From an uncultured bacterium (GTDB taxonomy: Bacteria > UBA8481), in assembly GCA_964499705.1 (NCBI GenBank), contig CAZCME010000007.1, forward strand, positions 124,001 to 188,000: a DNA stretch of 64,000 bases, written 5' to 3'. A program made the translations under genes and the position numbers. Every line of letters begins with the position of its first letter. The stretch's first letter is position 1. Positions 37,430 to 45,282 of this stretch are shown piece after piece. Below the pieces are notes generated by a model, which was not told the DNA's origin, did no database searches, and saw nothing but the letters and a program-made list of their open reading frames with translations.

Positions 37430-38368
37430 CTACTTCGGCTCCAGCGTAACATGGACCGCCAGGCCGCCCTTCTCGAGCCCCGTCTCCATCTTCATCCGCG
37501 CCTTATTGCCCTCGGTCAATTTCGTCTCGATCATGGACTTTGCGGATGCGAACGCATCCGAGAGCTTGTCCCGGCCGCCCTTGACGAAACCATTGATGAG
37601 CACATTCTCCTTGTTCACCGTGATCCCGATGCTGATCGCCTGGATCTCGTCGACCGCGTTCTGCATCCCGCCGAGCTGGCCGGCACCGAGCATGGCGTAC
37701 ATGGAGCGGGCCTGGGAGCAGAGCGAAGAACTGATGATGAGGCACGCCGGATCGTCGACCGCCCTGCGCAGCGCGATATATTCTTCATTCTCCGCGAGCG
37801 ACTTGTCCTTCCCCTCCTCCACGCGCTCCACCTTTGCGATCGCATCGTCGTTCCGGGACAGGACCACGAGATTGTCCTTCGTCCAGATCGTCGGCTGAGT
37901 CGGATCGTTCGAATTCCATTCCGTCCAACCGGACGGACGCGACGTGGTTACGATCTCCTTGTCCGCCACGCGCTTATCCAGAACTTTCCGGAAGTCATCC
38001 TCGTCGCCGATTTCCATGATCGCCAAAGCGTGATTCGCGGTGACGTTCGTGACGCAGACGAGGGATGGTCCGTCTAGAAACTCGATCAATTGAGCGGGAT
38101 CGAGCCGGAAATCCGTCGCCATTTCGCGCTCGAAATCGGCGCGCATGTTCGGCTTGTTCGCCGTGAGCATCTTGTTTTCGGCGGCGGAGGCGACAAAGGC
38201 GAGAGAGTTGTCGATCTGGAATACGAGCTGGGCGTCACCGGGAGCCATGCGGGCCAGATCGGTGCTTCTCGTGAAGTAATACGCGGCCGCGCCCGCCAAT
38301 ACGCCGGCCGGTATGAGCAGGAATACAACGGCCAGGATGATTTTCTGCCGCAGGGTCAGATCATGCAT
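37430..38368 (-). CDS. Hypothetical N-terminally anchored periplasmic protein (DUF3352-like)
   Basis: Single TM helix then LARMAPGDA..., with SLAENEEY as seen in DUF3352-like proteins; overlaps the terC stop. Confidence 0.5.
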   Translation of the reverse strand: MHDLTLRQKIILAVVFLLIPAGVLAGAAAYYFTRSTDLARMAPGDAQLVFQIDNSLAFVASAAENKMLTANKPNMRADFEREMATDFRLDPAQLIEFLDGPSLVCVTNVTANHALAIMEIGDEDDFRKVLDKRVADKEIVTTSRPSGWTEWNSNDPTQPTIWTKDNLVVLSRNDDAIAKVERVEEGKDKSLAENEEYIALRRAVDDPACLIISSSLCSQARSMYAMLGAGQLGGMQNAVDEIQAISIGITVNKENVLINGFVKGGRDKLSDAFASAKSMIETKLTEGNKARMKMETGLEKGGLAVHVTLEPK

Positions 38369-39296
38369 GATCGGATTTCCCCATCCTGTTCTTCACGATC
38401 GACGCCAGGATCGAAAGTCCCAGTATTCCGAAGACGACGGCCAGCGAAACGTTGATGCCGATCTCGTAGATGCTCGCGGCGACCATCTTCCCGCCGACGA
38501 AGATGAGAACGATCGCGACACCCATCTTGAGGTACTGAAAGATGCCCATCGCCCCGGCCAGCAGGAAAAAGAGAGCCCGCAGGCCCATGATCGCGAAGAT
38601 ATTCGACGTGTAGACGATGAACGGATCGCTCGTGATCCCGTAGATCGCCGGTATCGAATCCAGCGCGAAAACGACGTCCGTGCTCTCGATCGCCACGAGC
38701 GCCACAAGGAGCGGCGTCGCGACTCGTTTGCCGTTCATCACGGAGAAGAAACGAACACCGTCGTAATCGGTCTTCACGGGAATAAGACGGCACGTCAGCT
38801 TCACAAGCGGATTGTCGTTCGGATGAACTTCCTCTTCTCCGTGCCCCATCATCTTGAACCCCGTGAAAACGAGAAACGCGCCGAAGACATAGATCATCCA
38901 GTGGAAGTGATGCAGCAGGGCGGCGCCGAGAGCGACGAAAATGGCCCGGAGGACGACCGCGCCGATGATCCCCCACTTCAGTAGCCGCGGCTGAGCGTCC
39001 GGTCCGACGCCGAAGAAGGTGAAGATCATGATGAAGACGAAGAGGTTATCGACGGAAAGCGAGTATTCGATGATGTAGCCGGTCAGGAATTCCAAAGCCT
39101 TTTCGCGGCCTGCTGTGCGATACAGCCAGTAATTGAAAATGAGCGCGACGGTAACCCAGATCGCCGTCCAGAGCGCGGCCTCCTTCATGGAGGGCGCATG
39201 CGCCTTCCGCTGCCCGAGGCCGAGGTCGATCGTGATGACGATCAGCACAAGGGCTGCGAAACCGAACCAGAGCGAGGGGGAGGCGATCGAGACCAT
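38361..39296 (-). CDS. terC: TerC/Alx-family membrane protein
   Basis: Motifs GYIIEYSLSVDNLFVF, WGIIGAVVLR, DVVFALDSIPAI and YTSNIFAIMGLRALFF. Confidence 0.93.
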   Translation of the reverse strand: MVSIASPSLWFGFAALVLIVITIDLGLGQRKAHAPSMKEAALWTAIWVTVALIFNYWLYRTAGREKALEFLTGYIIEYSLSVDNLFVFIMIFTFFGVGPDAQPRLLKWGIIGAVVLRAIFVALGAALLHHFHWMIYVFGAFLVFTGFKMMGHGEEEVHPNDNPLVKLTCRLIPVKTDYDGVRFFSVMNGKRVATPLLVALVAIESTDVVFALDSIPAIYGITSDPFIVYTSNIFAIMGLRALFFLLAGAMGIFQYLKMGVAIVLIFVGGKMVAASIYEIGINVSLAVVFGILGLSILASIVKNRMGKSDHA

Positions 39297-39433: not shown

Positions 39434-41872
39434 ATGAAGATGTTTCAACGAGTCATGGGAATTTTCGGAATGGCGGCCCTCACGGCATTGGCGGCGAGCG
39501 CGAGCGAAGCGGATCTCGCGATCCCGGATCTGCACGCCGGGCATTTCAATATTTTAGGTCATCCGATCAGCGGCTGGAATCTCCTCTTCTACGGATCATG
39601 GGTCATCTGCGGCACCCTGGGCATCAGCCTCTGGCTGCGCAGCCAGATCTTCAAGCTTCCCGCTCACAAGTCGATGCTCGCCGTCTCGGAAGTCATCTTC
39701 CAGACCTGCCGTACCTATCTCCTGAAACAGGGTCAGTTCCTCCTCATGCTCTTCGCCCTCATCGGCGCCATCATGAGCTACTACTTCGTGGGCTTGCAGG
39801 GAGCCAGTTTCGGCACGCTCGGGCTCGTCCTTCTCTTCTCCCTCATCGGCATGGGAGGATCTTACTGGGTCGCCTCTTACGGCATCAGGGTCAACACCTA
39901 CGCCAATTCCCGCACCGCTTTCGCGTCTCTGCGCGGCAGGCCGTGGGATGTCGTCAACATTCCTCTCCGCGCCGGCATGTCCGTCGGACTCTTCCTCATC
40001 TCCCTGGAACTCGTGATGATGGTCATCATCCTCCTCTTCGTTCCCCGCGATATCGTCGGCTACTGCTTCCTCGGATTCGCCATCGGCGAATCGCTCGGCG
40101 CCTCGGCGCTCCGCATCGCGGGAGGCATCTTCACGAAGATCGCCGACATCGGATCCGACCTGATGAAGATCGCCTTCAAGGTCAAGGAAGACGATCCCAG
40201 GAACCCGGGCGTCATCGCCGACTGCACCGGCGACAACGCGGGCGACTCGGTCGGCCCGACGGCCGACGGTTTCGAGACCTACGGCGTCACCGGCGTCGCG
40301 CTCATCTCCTTCATCACGCTCGCCGTCCCCAGCCCCGACATCCAGGCCAAGCTGATCGTCTGGATCTTCGCCATGAGATTCCTGATGGACTTCATGTCGG
40401 GCGTTTCCTACTTCATCAACCAGGGCATCTCCGAGGCGAAATACGGCCATTTGAAGGAATTCAATTTCGAGGAGCCACTTTCCCGGCTCATCTGGATCGC
40501 GGCCATCCTCTGCATCGGAACATCCTTCCTCATGAGCAAGCTCCTGATCGGCGACATCGGCGTCGCGGACGCGACCGGCGTGATGACCATGCTCCCCAGC
40601 CTCTGGTGGCAACTGGCCGGCATCATCTCCTGCGGCACCCTCGCGGCGGTCCTCATCCCTGAATTCACCAAGATCTTCACGTCATCGCACTCCAAGCACG
40701 TTCACGAAATCGTGACGGCGTCCCGCGAAGGCGGACCGTCCCTGACCATCCTCTCCGGCATCGTCGCCGGCTCCTTCAGCGCCTACTGGATCGGCATGCT
40801 CATCATGGGCCTCATGGCCGCCGCCTACGGCATCAGCATGCTCGGCCTCGGCGCCATCATGGGAACCGCCGCGTCGGTCTTCGCCTTCGGACTCGTCGCC
40901 TTCGGATTCCTCTGCATGGGCCCCGTCAACATCGCCGTCGACAGCTACGGCCCCGTCACGGACAATGCGCAGTCGATCTTCGAGCTGGCGCAGACGGAAA
41001 GCATTCCGGGGATCGACGCGGAGATCCAGCGCGACTTCGGATTCAAGCCCGACTTCACGATGGGAAAGCACTATCTCGAGGCCAACGACGGAGCCGGCAA
41101 CACGTTCAAGGCCACGGCCAAGCCGGTCCTCATAGGCACTGCCGTCGTCGGCGCCACAACCATGATCTTCTCGATCATTCTCCTCCTGGATAAAGCGGGA
41201 CTGCTTCACCTCTCCCTGACCGACGCCCCGGTGCTCCTCGGATTCATCTCCGGCGGCGCCGTGATCTTCTGGTTCACCGGCGCCTCCATCCAGGCCGTCA
41301 CGACCGGCGCCTACAGCGCCGTCGAGTTCATCAAGAAGAACCTCGACCTCAACAAGAAGGAAGCCGACATCAACGACTCCATCACGGTCGTCCGGATCTG
41401 CACGGAATACGCGCAGAAGGGCATGTGGAACATCTTCCTCGCCCTCATGACCACGACTCTCGCCTTCGCCTTCTTCGACCCCAACTTCTTCGTCGCCTAT
41501 CTCATTTCCATAGCGGTCTTCGGCCTCTTCCAGGCCATCTACATGGCCAACGCCGGCGGCTCGTGGGACAACGCCAAGAAAGTGATCGAGGTCGATCTGA
41601 AGCAGAAGAATACGGCGCTGCACGAGGCGGGTGTCATCGGAGATACCGTTGGAGATCCCTTCAAGGACACATCGTCGGTCGCGATGAATCCGATCATCAA
41701 GTTTTCGACGCTCTTCGGCCTCCTGGCCGTCGAGATCGCGGTCAAGATGAAGGAAGAGGCTCACGCGGGTGGCAGCGGCGATTTCACGCCGATGATCGGA
41801 GCCGTCTTCTTCGTGGCCTCCCTCTACTTCGTCTGGCGTTCCTTCTACGCCATGCGGATTCCGGAACGATAA
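39434..41872 (+). CDS. hppA: Membrane-bound ion-translocating pyrophosphatase
   Basis: Motifs GGIFTKIADIGSDL, EDDPRNPGVIADCTGDNAGD, DSYGPVTDNA, GNTFKATAK, GGSWDNAKK and GDTVGDPFKDTS. Confidence 0.97.
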   Translation: MKMFQRVMGIFGMAALTALAASASEADLAIPDLHAGHFNILGHPISGWNLLFYGSWVICGTLGISLWLRSQIFKLPAHKSMLAVSEVIFQTCRTYLLKQGQFLLMLFALIGAIMSYYFVGLQGASFGTLGLVLLFSLIGMGGSYWVASYGIRVNTYANSRTAFASLRGRPWDVVNIPLRAGMSVGLFLISLELVMMVIILLFVPRDIVGYCFLGFAIGESLGASALRIAGGIFTKIADIGSDLMKIAFKVKEDDPRNPGVIADCTGDNAGDSVGPTADGFETYGVTGVALISFITLAVPSPDIQAKLIVWIFAMRFLMDFMSGVSYFINQGISEAKYGHLKEFNFEEPLSRLIWIAAILCIGTSFLMSKLLIGDIGVADATGVMTMLPSLWWQLAGIISCGTLAAVLIPEFTKIFTSSHSKHVHEIVTASREGGPSLTILSGIVAGSFSAYWIGMLIMGLMAAAYGISMLGLGAIMGTAASVFAFGLVAFGFLCMGPVNIAVDSYGPVTDNAQSIFELAQTESIPGIDAEIQRDFGFKPDFTMGKHYLEANDGAGNTFKATAKPVLIGTAVVGATTMIFSIILLLDKAGLLHLSLTDAPVLLGFISGGAVIFWFTGASIQAVTTGAYSAVEFIKKNLDLNKKEADINDSITVVRICTEYAQKGMWNIFLALMTTTLAFAFFDPNFFVAYLISIAVFGLFQAIYMANAGGSWDNAKKVIEVDLKQKNTALHEAGVIGDTVGDPFKDTSSVAMNPIIKFSTLFGLLAVEIAVKMKEEAHAGGSGDFTPMIGAVFFVASLYFVWRSFYAMRIPER

Positions 41873-41903
41873 CCGCCTGAGGTAATGCTCGAGGGGTAAC
41901 GCG

Positions 41904-43130
41904 GTGCCATACTACTGGCACTTCATCTGGACGATCCTCGCGCTGGCCGTCATCGCCGGCGGAGCGGGACATCTCCTCTTTCTGCTGATCAGCCGAGCCA
42001 ACCCGGGCGATGCCCGCATGGTGGAAGCGGCGGTACGCCTTCGCAAGAATGCGTCTTCCCTCCGCCTGCAGCACGAACGCGTCGGAGTCTCTCTCGCCGC
42101 CATCGCCTCGCTCTTCGCCGGTCGGGAATACGAAGTGTACGAATTCCGCAAGGTCGCGGCATGCGCCGTCGGCGCGACCTTGGCGCTTATCCTGGCCCGG
42201 AGAACGACCGTGCTCCTTGCCATCTCCCCCGGCCGCATCGCCGCCGCCCTCAGAAAAAGCGATGAGGCGGCGCGCTCTTTTCTCTTCAAGTTCCGCGCGG
42301 CCGCCGGTCTGCTCTTCTGTTCCATCGTCCTGCTCGCGCTCGACGCCTGGGCCTTTCTCGGCGAAGGCACGGCCCCGGCGATGCTGGCGGGCGCGTCGAC
42401 CATCGCGCTGGCGATGGCGCACGGAGCGGGCATGAAGCAAGGCGAGAGCGGAGATGAAGATCGCGTTGCGATGGAGACAGCTCTCGTCGCGCGCGATTTC
42501 GCCGCTCTTGTCGGAGCCATATTCTGCGCGTCGCTTCTGCTGCCGTCCCTGCCGCTTCCGGCCCTGGCGATCGCCGTTTCCGCCGCGACGTTCGCAACAC
42601 TCAGGTCCTTCACCCTTCTGCGCGCCCTCGGCGCGGCGGCTCATGCGACAGCCGCATCCGCCTCGCAGGACAAATCCACTCTGCAGAAAATTGAGATGTT
42701 TCAAACCGGAACACTCGCCCGTTCCACTCTGCCTGCCTCGGCCCTCGGCGCGGCCACGGTGCTGGTGCTCTTCCTGATGATCTTCGCGCGCGGAATCTCC
42801 CCGATGATCATCGGTCGCGGAGAATTCATCCTCTGCGCCTTCGCCGCCATGATCGCGCTCGTCGCGCTGAGAAAAGCTCCCGCCGCCGCGTTCGTCCCCG
42901 CCGCCGCCACATTGTGGCTCGTCGTCGCCGCGATTCCCAATGCGATGGTCTGGTATTCCGGTCAGTCCGCCGGCATCGGCTGGACCTCTGCCTGGTTCCT
43001 GGCGGCCATTCCCGCGGCATGGGGAGAGAGATCGCTTCCGGCTCGCCCCTCTCCCGTCGAGCATTTCCGCAGCATCGTGGTTCCATCCGCCCTGGCCACC
43101 TTCGCCTTCTCCATCATGGCCGCCTGGTAA
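41904..43130 (+). CDS. Polytopic membrane protein, apparent degenerate membrane-pyrophosphatase paralogue
   Basis: Very hydrophobic 408-aa ORF with a GAGGGG SD before the GTG. Segments such as NPGDARMVEAA, AVGATL and LAGASTIAL..HGAG echo mPPase helices, but the acidic catalytic motifs are absent. Confidence 0.55.
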   Translation: MPYYWHFIWTILALAVIAGGAGHLLFLLISRANPGDARMVEAAVRLRKNASSLRLQHERVGVSLAAIASLFAGREYEVYEFRKVAACAVGATLALILARRTTVLLAISPGRIAAALRKSDEAARSFLFKFRAAAGLLFCSIVLLALDAWAFLGEGTAPAMLAGASTIALAMAHGAGMKQGESGDEDRVAMETALVARDFAALVGAIFCASLLLPSLPLPALAIAVSAATFATLRSFTLLRALGAAAHATAASASQDKSTLQKIEMFQTGTLARSTLPASALGAATVLVLFLMIFARGISPMIIGRGEFILCAFAAMIALVALRKAPAAAFVPAAATLWLVVAAIPNAMVWYSGQSAGIGWTSAWFLAAIPAAWGERSLPARPSPVEHFRSIVVPSALATFAFSIMAAW

Positions 43131-43152
43131 GCACCAAACCCATCAAGTTCGG

Positions 43153-45207
43153 TTACTTCAGCGACCCGTCCCATGATTTCTTGTCGCGCTCAGGATACAT
43201 GTTCCGGTCCGGAGACAGATAGTATTCCTCGAACCTCACTGGCGTCATTCCATCGAGCGGAGGAAAATGCTCCTTCACAGCCAGGACCTTGTTCGGCGGC
43301 TCGGCCTTGTCCTCCGTGTTCCGCCATGACGGCCAGAACTCTTCCATCTTCGGCACACCGGTCGATTCGTATCCGAGCGTCCGCAGGGTGCCGCTCAACT
43401 GGAAGACGAAATCGCCCCACTTGTTGCCGGACGTCACGGGCACGTCGGGCCTGTACGCAAGGGCCCGTGCCGCGCATTCGACGCAGAGATCCCTGGGGCC
43501 GGTCCGGTCCGGCGTCTCCGCTTCCGCGTCGAGGGGCGTCGTAAGCCGCCGGGTGAGGAGCCCGTAGATCATCGATCGCTCCATCGCGCGAAAGCCCCGA
43601 GGCGACGGTGCTCCCTCGGTCGCGGATTCGACAGCGTCGCAGAAGATCCTCGATCGGGCCGCGTGCAGGATCGCACGCTCCGACATCGATCCCGCTTCGA
43701 TCACGGTCGACGCATCCTCGATCAACTTATCGCGCTTTTCGTCCGCGATGCGGGCCGCCTTGACATGCTCCGCATCGAGGCTCGGCGGAAACAGGATCGC
43801 GAACGCGGGCGATCCATCGGCGTCCACGAATTTCCGGCATCGGTCGATGAAGGCCTGCCGGAGAAGTCCGATCGACCGGGCCACGGCTCCTTCATCCTTC
43901 AACGGCTTCCGGATCTTTCTCCGCGTCGCCACGAGCCCGAGCGGCTTGACGAGCTGAAGCGCCGCGTCGAGCTCCGCCGACGCGACCAGCGCATCGAGGG
44001 CAAACGCGGAGAGAAGCGCGAGCGGCGCGCGCGCCGTCGACGCGGATATGACGGATGTCAGGATAATGTGCGCCTGCTTCGGATCATCTCCGAGAAAGGC
44101 AATGACAGATTTGCCGATCCGCTCCAGGCCTTCCTCGTCGTTGCGGGCCATCGTATCGCGACAGGCGGCGCGGATGACCTGCTGCCGTTCCGGTGTCAAC
44201 AGCCCCTTCTCCGCAAGCACATCGCGGGCGGCGGCCCAGCGTTCGACCTTCATCATGACGGCTCGCGCGTTCCGAAGGTCATCCGTGGAATCAAGCGATC
44301 TGGCCAGCGCGCAGATCTGGTCGGCATAGGGACCCGGTGTGGCCAGGGCCGTGAGAGACGACTGGACCGAGCGCAACTTCCCGTCGCGCGCCAATCGCTC
44401 CAGCGCCGAGACGATCTCCGGGGTCAGCTCGCGGAGCGATTCCACGGTTTTGGCAAGCCGGACGTCCTCGCCGAGTCCCGACAGGAGATCGAGCCGGTCC
44501 GCGCCGCCCGAGTATTTCCGCTCGGCTGCCGCAAGCAGGGGCGCATACAGGTTCTCATCCCGCTTCCTGACGATCCTGAGAAAATCCTCCACGACTTCTA
44601 CGGATGGAAACGGAGATTGCTCCAGCCATTTCGCCAGCTGCGAAGCCTGGGATGCATCGAATGACGCCGCGATGAATCCGCAGAGCGACGGCGTCTTGAT
44701 TCCCTTCGCCTTCATCGCGATGGCCACCGCGCGCGTTCCGTGTCCCGCGGCGGCGATTTTCCTCAGGAGTTCCAGCCACGGCTCCGTCGCGTCCATTCCC
44801 TTGGCCTCGATGAACTGAACCGCGAGCGCGCCCGACTCGACGTTCAGGATCCGCTCGACATGCGCGGGAGAAGCGTCGACCGTGAAGAGTTCGTAGAGCG
44901 CCTTTTCGATGAGAGAGGTATCCGTTTCCGCGAGAGGGAGGTTTCCTCGGAGTTCAAAGCAGCAGAGGGCGACCCGGAGCACGGGCCTGTCACGATCGAG
45001 CGAAAGCAGCTTCCGCGCCGTGTCGAGAACGCCCTTGTCCGCGGCCAGCATCTCCGACATGGCGAGCGGGAGTTCCTTCTTGAAGAGCGGAGCCAGCCTG
45101 TCTGCAAGAGTTTCGATCTCCTTGCAGCGTTCGCAGATCCTCCCCTTGGAAGTGATGTAGCCGCCCAGAAAACCGATTTTCGCTCCGCATCGAACGCAGC
45201 CGCTCAT
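43153..45207 (-). CDS. Hypothetical protein with an N-terminal zinc ribbon and a long alpha-helical body
   Basis: MSGCVRCGAKIGFLGGY...ICERC, followed by Leu/Ala-rich helical sequence. Confidence 0.65.
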   Translation of the reverse strand: MSGCVRCGAKIGFLGGYITSKGRICERCKEIETLADRLAPLFKKELPLAMSEMLAADKGVLDTARKLLSLDRDRPVLRVALCCFELRGNLPLAETDTSLIEKALYELFTVDASPAHVERILNVESGALAVQFIEAKGMDATEPWLELLRKIAAAGHGTRAVAIAMKAKGIKTPSLCGFIAASFDASQASQLAKWLEQSPFPSVEVVEDFLRIVRKRDENLYAPLLAAAERKYSGGADRLDLLSGLGEDVRLAKTVESLRELTPEIVSALERLARDGKLRSVQSSLTALATPGPYADQICALARSLDSTDDLRNARAVMMKVERWAAARDVLAEKGLLTPERQQVIRAACRDTMARNDEEGLERIGKSVIAFLGDDPKQAHIILTSVISASTARAPLALLSAFALDALVASAELDAALQLVKPLGLVATRRKIRKPLKDEGAVARSIGLLRQAFIDRCRKFVDADGSPAFAILFPPSLDAEHVKAARIADEKRDKLIEDASTVIEAGSMSERAILHAARSRIFCDAVESATEGAPSPRGFRAMERSMIYGLLTRRLTTPLDAEAETPDRTGPRDLCVECAARALAYRPDVPVTSGNKWGDFVFQLSGTLRTLGYESTGVPKMEEFWPSWRNTEDKAEPPNKVLAVKEHFPPLDGMTPVRFEEYYLSPDRNMYPERDKKSWDGSLK

Positions 45208-45213
45208 GAAGGG

Positions 45214-45282
45214 AGTATGAAGCAGGAGACATGAAGTATGAAGCAGATTTGTCTTCATACTTCATGCTTCATCCCTCATACT
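45214..45282. repeat. Heptamer-based inverted repeat filling a divergent intergenic region; each arm ends in a CATACT -10-like hexamer
   Basis: catgaagtatgaag (45230-45243) / cttcatacttcatg (45253-45266) is a perfect match. Outer agtatg (45214-45219) / catact (45277-45282) each lie 6 nt from a start codon. Confidence 0.75.

Follow-up and report, generated by a model that had tools for sequence, protein, structure and literature searches.

A reading frame behind hppA as a probable remnant of a displaced membrane pyrophosphatase

What is encoded by an intact hydrophobic reading frame that lies directly behind hppA, the gene of a membrane-bound pyrophosphatase (mPPase)? In published accounts, mPPases are ion pumps that form homodimers and are encoded by a single gene, and full-text literature searches found no paper on a degenerate or catalytically dead derivative of them. 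The frame, termed ORF408 after its 408 codons, is located on contig CAZCME010000007.1 of an uncultured bacterium (assembly GCA_964499705.1; genome G000 in the following), within an analysed stretch of 64,000 nucleotides (nt) that is called the window and in which all coordinates are counted. The original prediction, made from the letters of the window, regarded it as a catalytically dead paralogue of hppA that is retained as a pseudo-enzyme. With modest confidence, we favour a different history, in which ORF408 is the degenerate, half-length and catalytically dead descendant of the lineage's own K+-dependent mPPase, an expressed but dispensable remnant of a displaced pump. The finding rests on one genome. 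The following elements of the locus are needed for the argument.

39434..41872, + strand: hppA, intact membrane pyrophosphatase gene, 812 amino acids (aa) from the ATG at 39434; frame open from 39365, stop codon TAA at 41870-41872
41873..41903, + strand: spacer of 31 nt between hppA and ORF408, with the Shine-Dalgarno-like site GAGGGG at 41891-41896
41904..43130, + strand: ORF408, 408 aa, GTG start, intact orphan frame for a polytopic membrane protein
41907..42083, + strand: mPPase N-terminal module, ORF408 residues 2-60, helix 1 and first loop with ANPGDARM
41784..43064, - strand: antisense frame of 426 aa, a shadow of ORF408 and not a gene

The N-terminal module and its source

A six-frame search of 41 related genomes with ORF408 gave weak matches in G001 (E 0.0022) and G002 (E 0.033), which belong to the same family as G000. 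Both matches fell on the N-terminus of the mPPase encoded by these genomes (766-771 aa). The genes of G001, G002 and G004 and the proteins P0002 to P0005 (P0002 being from G001 and P0005 from G004) are K+-dependent mPPases and are referred to as K-type; their source names are 'K(+)-stimulated pyrophosphate-energized sodium pump' or 'sodium-translocating pyrophosphatase'. In a three-sequence BLASTP comparison, residues 2-57 of ORF408 aligned with residues 6-58 of the G001 enzyme at 39% identity (E 2e-5), and the identical octamer ANPGDARM is found at residue 33 in both. Smith-Waterman scores of ORF408 were 89 with G001 (shuffles 49.0±7.3; equalled by 0/1000 global and 3/1000 block shuffles) and 85 with G004 (shuffles 47.5±6.9; 0/1000 and 1/1000, respectively). 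The signal was located in residues 1-60, which scored 80 compared with 30.1±4.2 for shuffled sequences (0/1000). Moreover, when the first 70 or 75 residues of the relatives' enzymes were used as query against the complete G000 genome in six frames (39,897 segments), the ORF408 frame was the sole match (E 0.0011 and 0.00054).

Comparison of the first 60 residues with 120 K-type mPPases placed P0005, P0002, P0004 and P0003 at the top. All four carry 'NPG', while nearly all other K-type enzymes have 'SEG', 'PEG' or similar; P0085 also displays NPG. Since the four best matches are the phylum's own NPG-bearing clade, the N-terminal module descends from the lineage's own K-type enzyme, and its origin from an mPPase is almost certain. 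Significant, positionally equivalent similarity, as expected for a member of the H_PPase superfamily by descent, was found for residues 1-60 only.

The resemblance of the motif ISRANPGDARMVEAAVRLRKNA to mPPases, originally noticed by eye, is thus statistically confirmed, but its counterpart is the K-type mPPase of the relatives and not the adjacent HppA. Descent from the neighbouring gene, as implied by the term paralogue, could not be upheld. The Smith-Waterman score of ORF408 with HppA was 37 and thereby below the shuffle mean of 45.5±6.4, and the best BLASTP match had an E value of 0.61, so that ORF408 is no recognisable copy of HppA. The N-terminus of HppA differs from that of ORF408 and is devoid of the NPG..RM motif, and HppA shares only 26% identity with the K-type enzyme.

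Loss of the catalytic core and traces in the remainder of ORF408

Eight catalytic patterns (K..D...D, EDD.RN, DN.GD, D6DN.GG, GNT.A, GKG[FY]AI, DN.KK and GD..KD) were checked against the relatives' enzymes and searched for in ORF408. All eight were present in the G001 and G004 enzymes and none in ORF408, which contains 7 Asp and 8 Lys in total. The absence of the substrate and Mg2+ motifs had been predicted correctly.

PMC10897367 describes mPPases as proteins of 650-800 residues with about 16 transmembrane helices arranged in two rings. Helices 5, 6, 11, 12, 15 and 16 form the inner ring and functional core, helices 1-4, 7-10, 13 and 14 form an outer ring of 'largely unknown function', and helices 10, 13 and 15 provide the dimer interface. 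ORF408, with 408 aa and about 11 hydrophobic segments, has neither the size nor the helix number of a functional mPPase. In a weak map, its residues 304-388 (85 aa) stand against about 345 K-type residues that bear the motifs of helices 11 and 12. Beyond the last match, at residues 389-401, only 7 residues follow, compared with about 115 in the K-type enzyme including DN.KK and GD..KD; the last two catalytic helices are therefore missing. Of the dimer-interface helices, ORF408 lacks helix 15, and helices 10 and 13 could not be recognised in it, which would make pairing with HppA by the canonical interface doubtful.

Outside the N-terminal module, four stretches showed weak matches to the mPPase profile (hhalign P values).

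42234..42350, + strand: residues 111-149, loop and helix preceding helix 5 (about 113-152 in the relatives), P 0.17
42390..42434, + strand: residues 163-177, GASTIALAMAHGAG, matching 'GAStQALFARVGGG' with 57% identity over 14 columns, P 0.66
42711..42812, + strand: residues 270-303, STLPASALGAA...PMII, matching 'SILATAALGAA...PM.v', P 0.056
43068..43106, + strand: residues 389-401, matching 'kEMi.PSllAIiV' in the hydrophobic helix that precedes the DN.KK helix, P 0.21

Residues 111-149 match along the diagonal of the N-terminal alignment. In mPPases, the 'GAStQALFARVGGG' stretch immediately precedes the K..D...D motif of helix 5, a motif that is itself absent from ORF408, and the 'SILATAALGAA...PM.v' stretch immediately follows the helix-6 motifs. 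The top hhalign matches of four ORF408 segments were collinear on the mPPase profile and reached a summed chain score of 67.1. Block-shuffled controls scored 29.8±11.0 with a maximum of 61.3 (0/119 reached the ORF408 score; all four segments were collinear in 2/119), and natural hydrophobic proteins of G000 scored 33.2±10.3 with a maximum of 56.2 (0/47; collinear in 0/47). In both sets together, the score was reached by 0/166 controls.

These traces bear on the alignment by eye from which the original prediction had concluded that ORF408 follows the canonical mPPase helices in order. A weak collinear trace of this order exists, but most of the middle and C-terminal helices are missing. The second and third resemblances (residues ~83-150; LAGASTIALAMAHGAG) were recovered as the best local profile matches at the places proposed, although they are not significant on their own (P 0.17 and 0.66). 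The fourth, in which residues ~244-290 were equated with the 'DNAGG...DALD' region of helices 11 and 12, has to be abandoned, as the sole match in this part (270-303) maps after the helix-6 motifs.

Language-model features of the Atlas gave H_PPase as the top three matches of the whole ORF408 (score 0.82), and residues 61-408 alone also had H_PPase neighbours (0.80-0.81). The ten best family-bearing matches were all H_PPase, both for the whole protein and for residues 61-408. Furthermore, the Atlas model of ORF408 (predicted template modelling score, pTM, 0.67; predicted local distance difference test, pLDDT, 0.62) could be superimposed on an mPPase cluster with a template modelling (TM) score of 0.73 over 357 residues, and its residues 61-408 with a TM score of 0.68 over 295 residues. 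Other listed membrane-protein folds reached 0.28-0.45, the next fold for the whole protein being at 0.37. The Atlas leads carry weight because they name a family already singled out by other means. Overall, we consider it likely that the whole of ORF408 is derived from an mPPase.

A frameshifted relic was considered as well and rejected, since hmmsearch and tblastn with K-type enzymes in the six frames of 41700-43300 gave a signal in the ORF408 frame only. At the DNA level, blastn detected no similarity.

Coding signature, neighbouring genes and distribution

Coordinates and sequence agree with the earlier description of ORF408 as an intact, hydrophobic frame of 408 aa that is led by a Shine-Dalgarno-like site and starts 31 nt past hppA. 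The GAGGGG site is situated 7 nt upstream of the GTG codon, and a consensus scan of the spacer revealed neither a promoter-like nor a terminator-like site. The deduced product contains 22.8% Ala and 13% Leu; its hydrophobic segments were counted with a crude hydropathy rule. The positive-inside bias was reached by 48/500 shuffles, and the same rule mis-segments genuine mPPases. No internal protein repeats exceeding shuffles were found in ORF408, only short GC-rich DNA repeats.

To assess coding potential, 532 stop-to-stop frames of G000, each 700 aa or longer, served to train a codon model. The ORF408 frame was the best of six in each third, with 0.092-0.114 log-likelihood units per codon; five neighbouring genes had 0.15-0.21. 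Among 3,797 G000 frames of 300-699 aa, whose scores are distributed bimodally, the whole-ORF408 score of 0.119 falls within the positive mode and ranks at the 37th percentile among positive scorers. The G+C contents of the three codon positions were 0.65/0.55/0.78, compared with 0.64/0.47/0.74 in the training set. The antisense frame obtained a log-likelihood ratio of -0.091 per codon and was best fitted as the 'reverse of a coding frame'. The probability of 408 open codons was 0.011 with the position-specific composition of ORF408 itself and 2.8e-4 with a homogenised composition. Marks of a pseudogene were not found: across the 408 codons there is no stop or frameshift, and the codon-position signature is kept. 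Together with the site resembling a ribosome binding site, the intact frame and the codon signature of the genome make it most probable that ORF408 continues to share a transcript with hppA and that its product enters the membrane.

Contigs of an independent second study join the end of hppA to ORF408 and the end of ORF408 to the next gene with 0 differences, so that the junctions are not assembly artefacts. Sequencing runs X3-X6 of this study (P2) contain, at low coverage, the same strain as runs X1-X2 of study P1, and 6/6 of the contig pieces listed over 41873-43130 show 0 differences. The numerous variants seen within hppA in runs X3-X6 come from conserved motifs of other organisms. The identical pieces over the locus indicate that the organism is not restricted to the sample from which it was assembled. 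A 20-nt inverted repeat with 85% complementarity was also observed (41877-41896 and 43053-43072, arms 1,156 nt apart). The first arm covers the ORF408 Shine-Dalgarno-like site, and the second is situated in the 3' end of the frame; the repeat may be due to chance.

The adjacent HppA matches PF03030 with E 3e-171 and the NCBIfam model NF001950 with 1271.9 bits (cut-off 826), and its gene is the only PF03030 gene of G000. Five of the eight strict catalytic patterns occur in it. The HppA residue that aligns with position 12.46 is Lys (GNTFKATAK compared with GNTTAATGK of the K-type), which is the change defining K+-independence of mPPases according to PMC10897367, and HppA is therefore assigned to the K+-independent type. 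Residue 12.49 is Ala and not the Thr usually paired with Lys at 12.46, and despite the K+-independent-type Lys the best NCBIfam model is named 'sodium-translocating pyrophosphatase'. Best-segment identities of hppA to genes from metagenome-assembled genomes of Planctomycetota and Omnitrophota are 72-84%.

The phylum of G000 in GTDB comprises five species representatives. K-type genes are present in 3/4 of the others, across both families, and an hppA of the G000 type in 0/4. G000 itself lacks a K-type mPPase, its single PF03030 gene being of the other type. Because hppA is the only gene of its clade in the five-species phylum and shares 72-84% identity with Planctomycetota and Omnitrophota genes, it is a candidate for horizontal acquisition. 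The fourth other species, G003 (same family, 96% complete), has no mPPase; a search with HppA as query detected neither type in it, and no ORF408-like sequence was found. The family thus varies between the K-type, the acquired type and none. The simplest history of these distributions would be that a K+-independent pump, acquired or alone retained, took over, and that the resident K+-dependent pump eroded into ORF408.

Searches for further ORF408 sequences remained negative. None of the 41 related genomes contains an orthologue, ORF408 itself was alone among 8,000 scored candidates in a search of 5.8 billion clusters, and a metagenome scan gave 106 pattern matches of which 0 were confirmed. 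Conserved adjacency to hppA in relatives, part of the original proposal, was likewise not observed: among 80 Planctomycetota-type hppA loci, 69 extended at least 900 nt downstream, and 0/69 of these carried an ORF408-like frame (best E 0.035) or a K-type remnant (best E 0.84). No NCBIfam mPPase model matched ORF408, and no mPPase chain was found in the PDB at E≤10. Several other matches were rejected. Three weak NCBIfam matches (E 0.01-0.23, 10-15 bits, cut-offs 270-600) are noise. The PDB entry 'covalently connected cytochrome c555 trimer' (E 1.7e-5) reflects a repeat or composition effect; single cytochrome c552 chains gave only E 0.86-1.6, and ORF408 has no CxxCH. P0122, the sole non-self phmmer match (E 1.7e-13), is a PKD-like tandem-repeat protein and an artefact, one weak alignment of 53 residues (30% identity) being summed across seven repeats.

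The following genes flank the hppA-ORF408 pair.

38361-39296, - strand: TerC-family membrane protein (PF03741, E 3.2e-50), upstream flank
43153..45258, - strand: convergent orphan gene of 701 aa, ending 22 nt past ORF408, coding log-likelihood ratio 0.164 per codon
45238-46511, + strand: response-regulator-like frame of 135 aa and MotA/ExbB-like frame of 262 aa, identified by eye from the translations, downstream flank

The 701-aa product belongs to no Pfam or NCBIfam family and has two CxxC pairs (CVRC...CERC) at its N-terminus. The TerC-family, response-regulator-like and MotA/ExbB-like genes are not related to pyrophosphate (PPi) metabolism.

Competing explanations and known systems

Several results weigh against descent of ORF408 from a K-type pump and its survival as a remnant. 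Similarity to the H_PPase profile (PF03030), on which the original prediction had counted, did not emerge, as Pfam yielded 0 families even at E≤10, and phmmer, run exhaustively with ORF408 against 1.84 billion representatives, found no mPPase. Past residue 60, the individual alignments all fall short of significance: hhalign of residues 61-408 gave P 0.42, our profile chain alignment of the same region gave z values of 0.8-1.6 that were equalled by 13/200 and 39/200 shuffles, and Smith-Waterman scores of residues 61-150, 151-408 and sub-segments stayed within those of shuffles. In the collinearity test, 2/4 segment borders were set after the first matches were known. The Atlas feature scores are below the tool's bar of 0.9 ('lead only'), the pLDDT of the model is 0.62, and features and structure are weighed together as a single line of evidence. 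A single-sequence AlphaFold2 model of ORF408 was unusable (pLDDT 45.5) and had no Foldseek match in the PDB at E≤0.001. Synteny does not support displacement in place, the neighbours of the relatives' mPPase genes mapping to other G000 contigs. Finally, conservation is inverted in ORF408, the usually variable N-terminus being kept and the usually invariant core erased. This is unlike uniform neutral decay and leaves room for selection, that is a functional pseudo-enzyme, or for a chimera.

A chimera would have received only its first ~60 codons from the resident mPPase, fused in frame by deletion or rearrangement to an unrelated or newly arisen hydrophobic sequence. Restriction of the significant similarity to residues 1-60 and the non-significant hhalign (P 0.42) and chain alignments of the body are what such a fusion predicts, but the collinear top matches beat 166/166 controls and the best match of residues 61-150 lies on the diagonal of the N-terminal match. 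Moreover, residues 61-408 alone retrieve only H_PPase clusters by their features and resemble an mPPase in the Atlas model (TM 0.68), while the body has no homologue in any other family in Pfam, NCBIfam, cluster and representative searches; we regard a chimera as unlikely. Very unlikely, in our view, is that the frame is silent, either a dead pseudogene or an unrelated GC-rich spacer that is open by chance and untranslated. The 65% G+C of the region, the 426-codon antisense frame that is also open and the failure to find orthologues are compatible with this idea. It is contradicted by the frame-specific codon signature in all three thirds, with the antisense frame scoring as a shadow, by a codon score inside the mode of real genes, by the low probability of an open frame under homogenised composition (2.8e-4) and by the lack of frameshifted traces in other frames; the N-terminal homology excludes an 'unrelated spacer'. 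A retained pseudo-enzyme is a tentative possibility of more substance. Here, a dead mPPase-derived subunit would be kept by selection and co-expressed with HppA, and might bind and modulate HppA or serve as another membrane scaffold or conduit. An intact frame with its coding signature despite extreme divergence would fit this assumption, as would the tight placement on the same strand just past hppA, the spacer holding a Shine-Dalgarno-like site and nothing that resembles a terminator. The N-terminal module has kept 39% identity while the core is gone, which uniform neutral decay would not yield. However, no orthologue was detected in the 41 genomes, in the metagenome scan or among 5.8 billion clusters and 1.84 billion representatives, such a neighbour is present at 0/69 Planctomycetota-type hppA loci, and of the interface helices 10, 13 and 15 named in PMC10897367 ORF408 lacks the last and shows no recognisable counterpart of the other two.

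We give a remnant under relaxed constraint a higher probability than a partner dedicated to HppA. According to this favoured history, the resident K+-dependent pump would have been functionally replaced by the K+-independent-type hppA. From the resident gene, helix 1 and the motif of the first cytoplasmic loop are well preserved; faint collinear traces suggest that parts before helix 5, at the start of helix 5, after helix 6 and of one late helix may also persist. Judged by motifs, ORF408 has lost every acidic or lysine motif of the catalytic inner-ring helices, together with the C-terminal end and the greater part of the middle. Given the established mechanism of mPPases, ORF408 would be unable to bind or hydrolyse PPi or to pump ions in the manner of these enzymes. 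Its product, most probably made from a transcript shared with hppA, would reside in the membrane as an inert bundle of mostly outer-ring-like helices. The locus appears to show a K+-dependent resident displaced by a K+-independent type closest to the enzymes of Planctomycetota, with the loser still readable as an intact gene.

If ORF408 is a remnant only, it is a tidy, minor example of gene displacement and illustrates the extent of erosion that a membrane protein can undergo with its frame still open and its character still membrane-like. A half-size dead derivative of mostly outer-ring-like helices that is maintained by selection as modulator, assembly factor or scaffold for or beside the acquired HppA is a minority prospect judged from sequence. 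If it were true, the outer-ring helices of mPPases could have a separate life, which would bear on the 'largely unknown function' ascribed to the outer ring in PMC10897367. As a pseudo-enzyme, ORF408 would be the first of the mPPase family, and a displaced resident pump would have been recycled as an accessory to its replacement.

With the K-type mPPases of its phylum, ORF408 shares helix 1, the loop after it that bears the motif [AS]NPG[DSN][AV]RM typical of this clade, weak collinear traces further on and, tentatively, an mPPase-like arrangement in the Atlas model. It differs from them in its length (408 compared with 753-771 aa), in the absence of the catalytic motifs of helices 5, 6, 11, 12, 15 and 16, in the lack of a counterpart to ~260 middle residues and to the last ~115 residues, and in falling under the detection limit of PF03030. 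The adjacent HppA has in common with ORF408 the superfamily by descent, the strand and probably the transcript. In contrast, the two have no detectable direct similarity and are not tandem duplicates, their clades being 26% identical. Catalytically dead paralogues that regulate an active counterpart are exemplified by the trypanosome S-adenosylmethionine decarboxylase (AdoMetDC) 'prozyme' (PMC5201418). Like the 'prozyme', ORF408 is a derivative of an oligomeric enzyme that has lost the catalytic residues and is encoded alongside an active enzyme. Unlike the 'prozyme' of that account, it belongs to another clade than its neighbour and apparently has no oligomerisation helices. Ordinary displacement pseudogenes resemble ORF408 in being lineage-specific and without orthologues, in the transfer of their function to an acquired analogue and in large internal losses. 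ORF408 differs from these in having no stop or frameshift and in retaining a codon signature and a Shine-Dalgarno-like site, and it has decayed unevenly, its N-terminus surviving where the core has disappeared.

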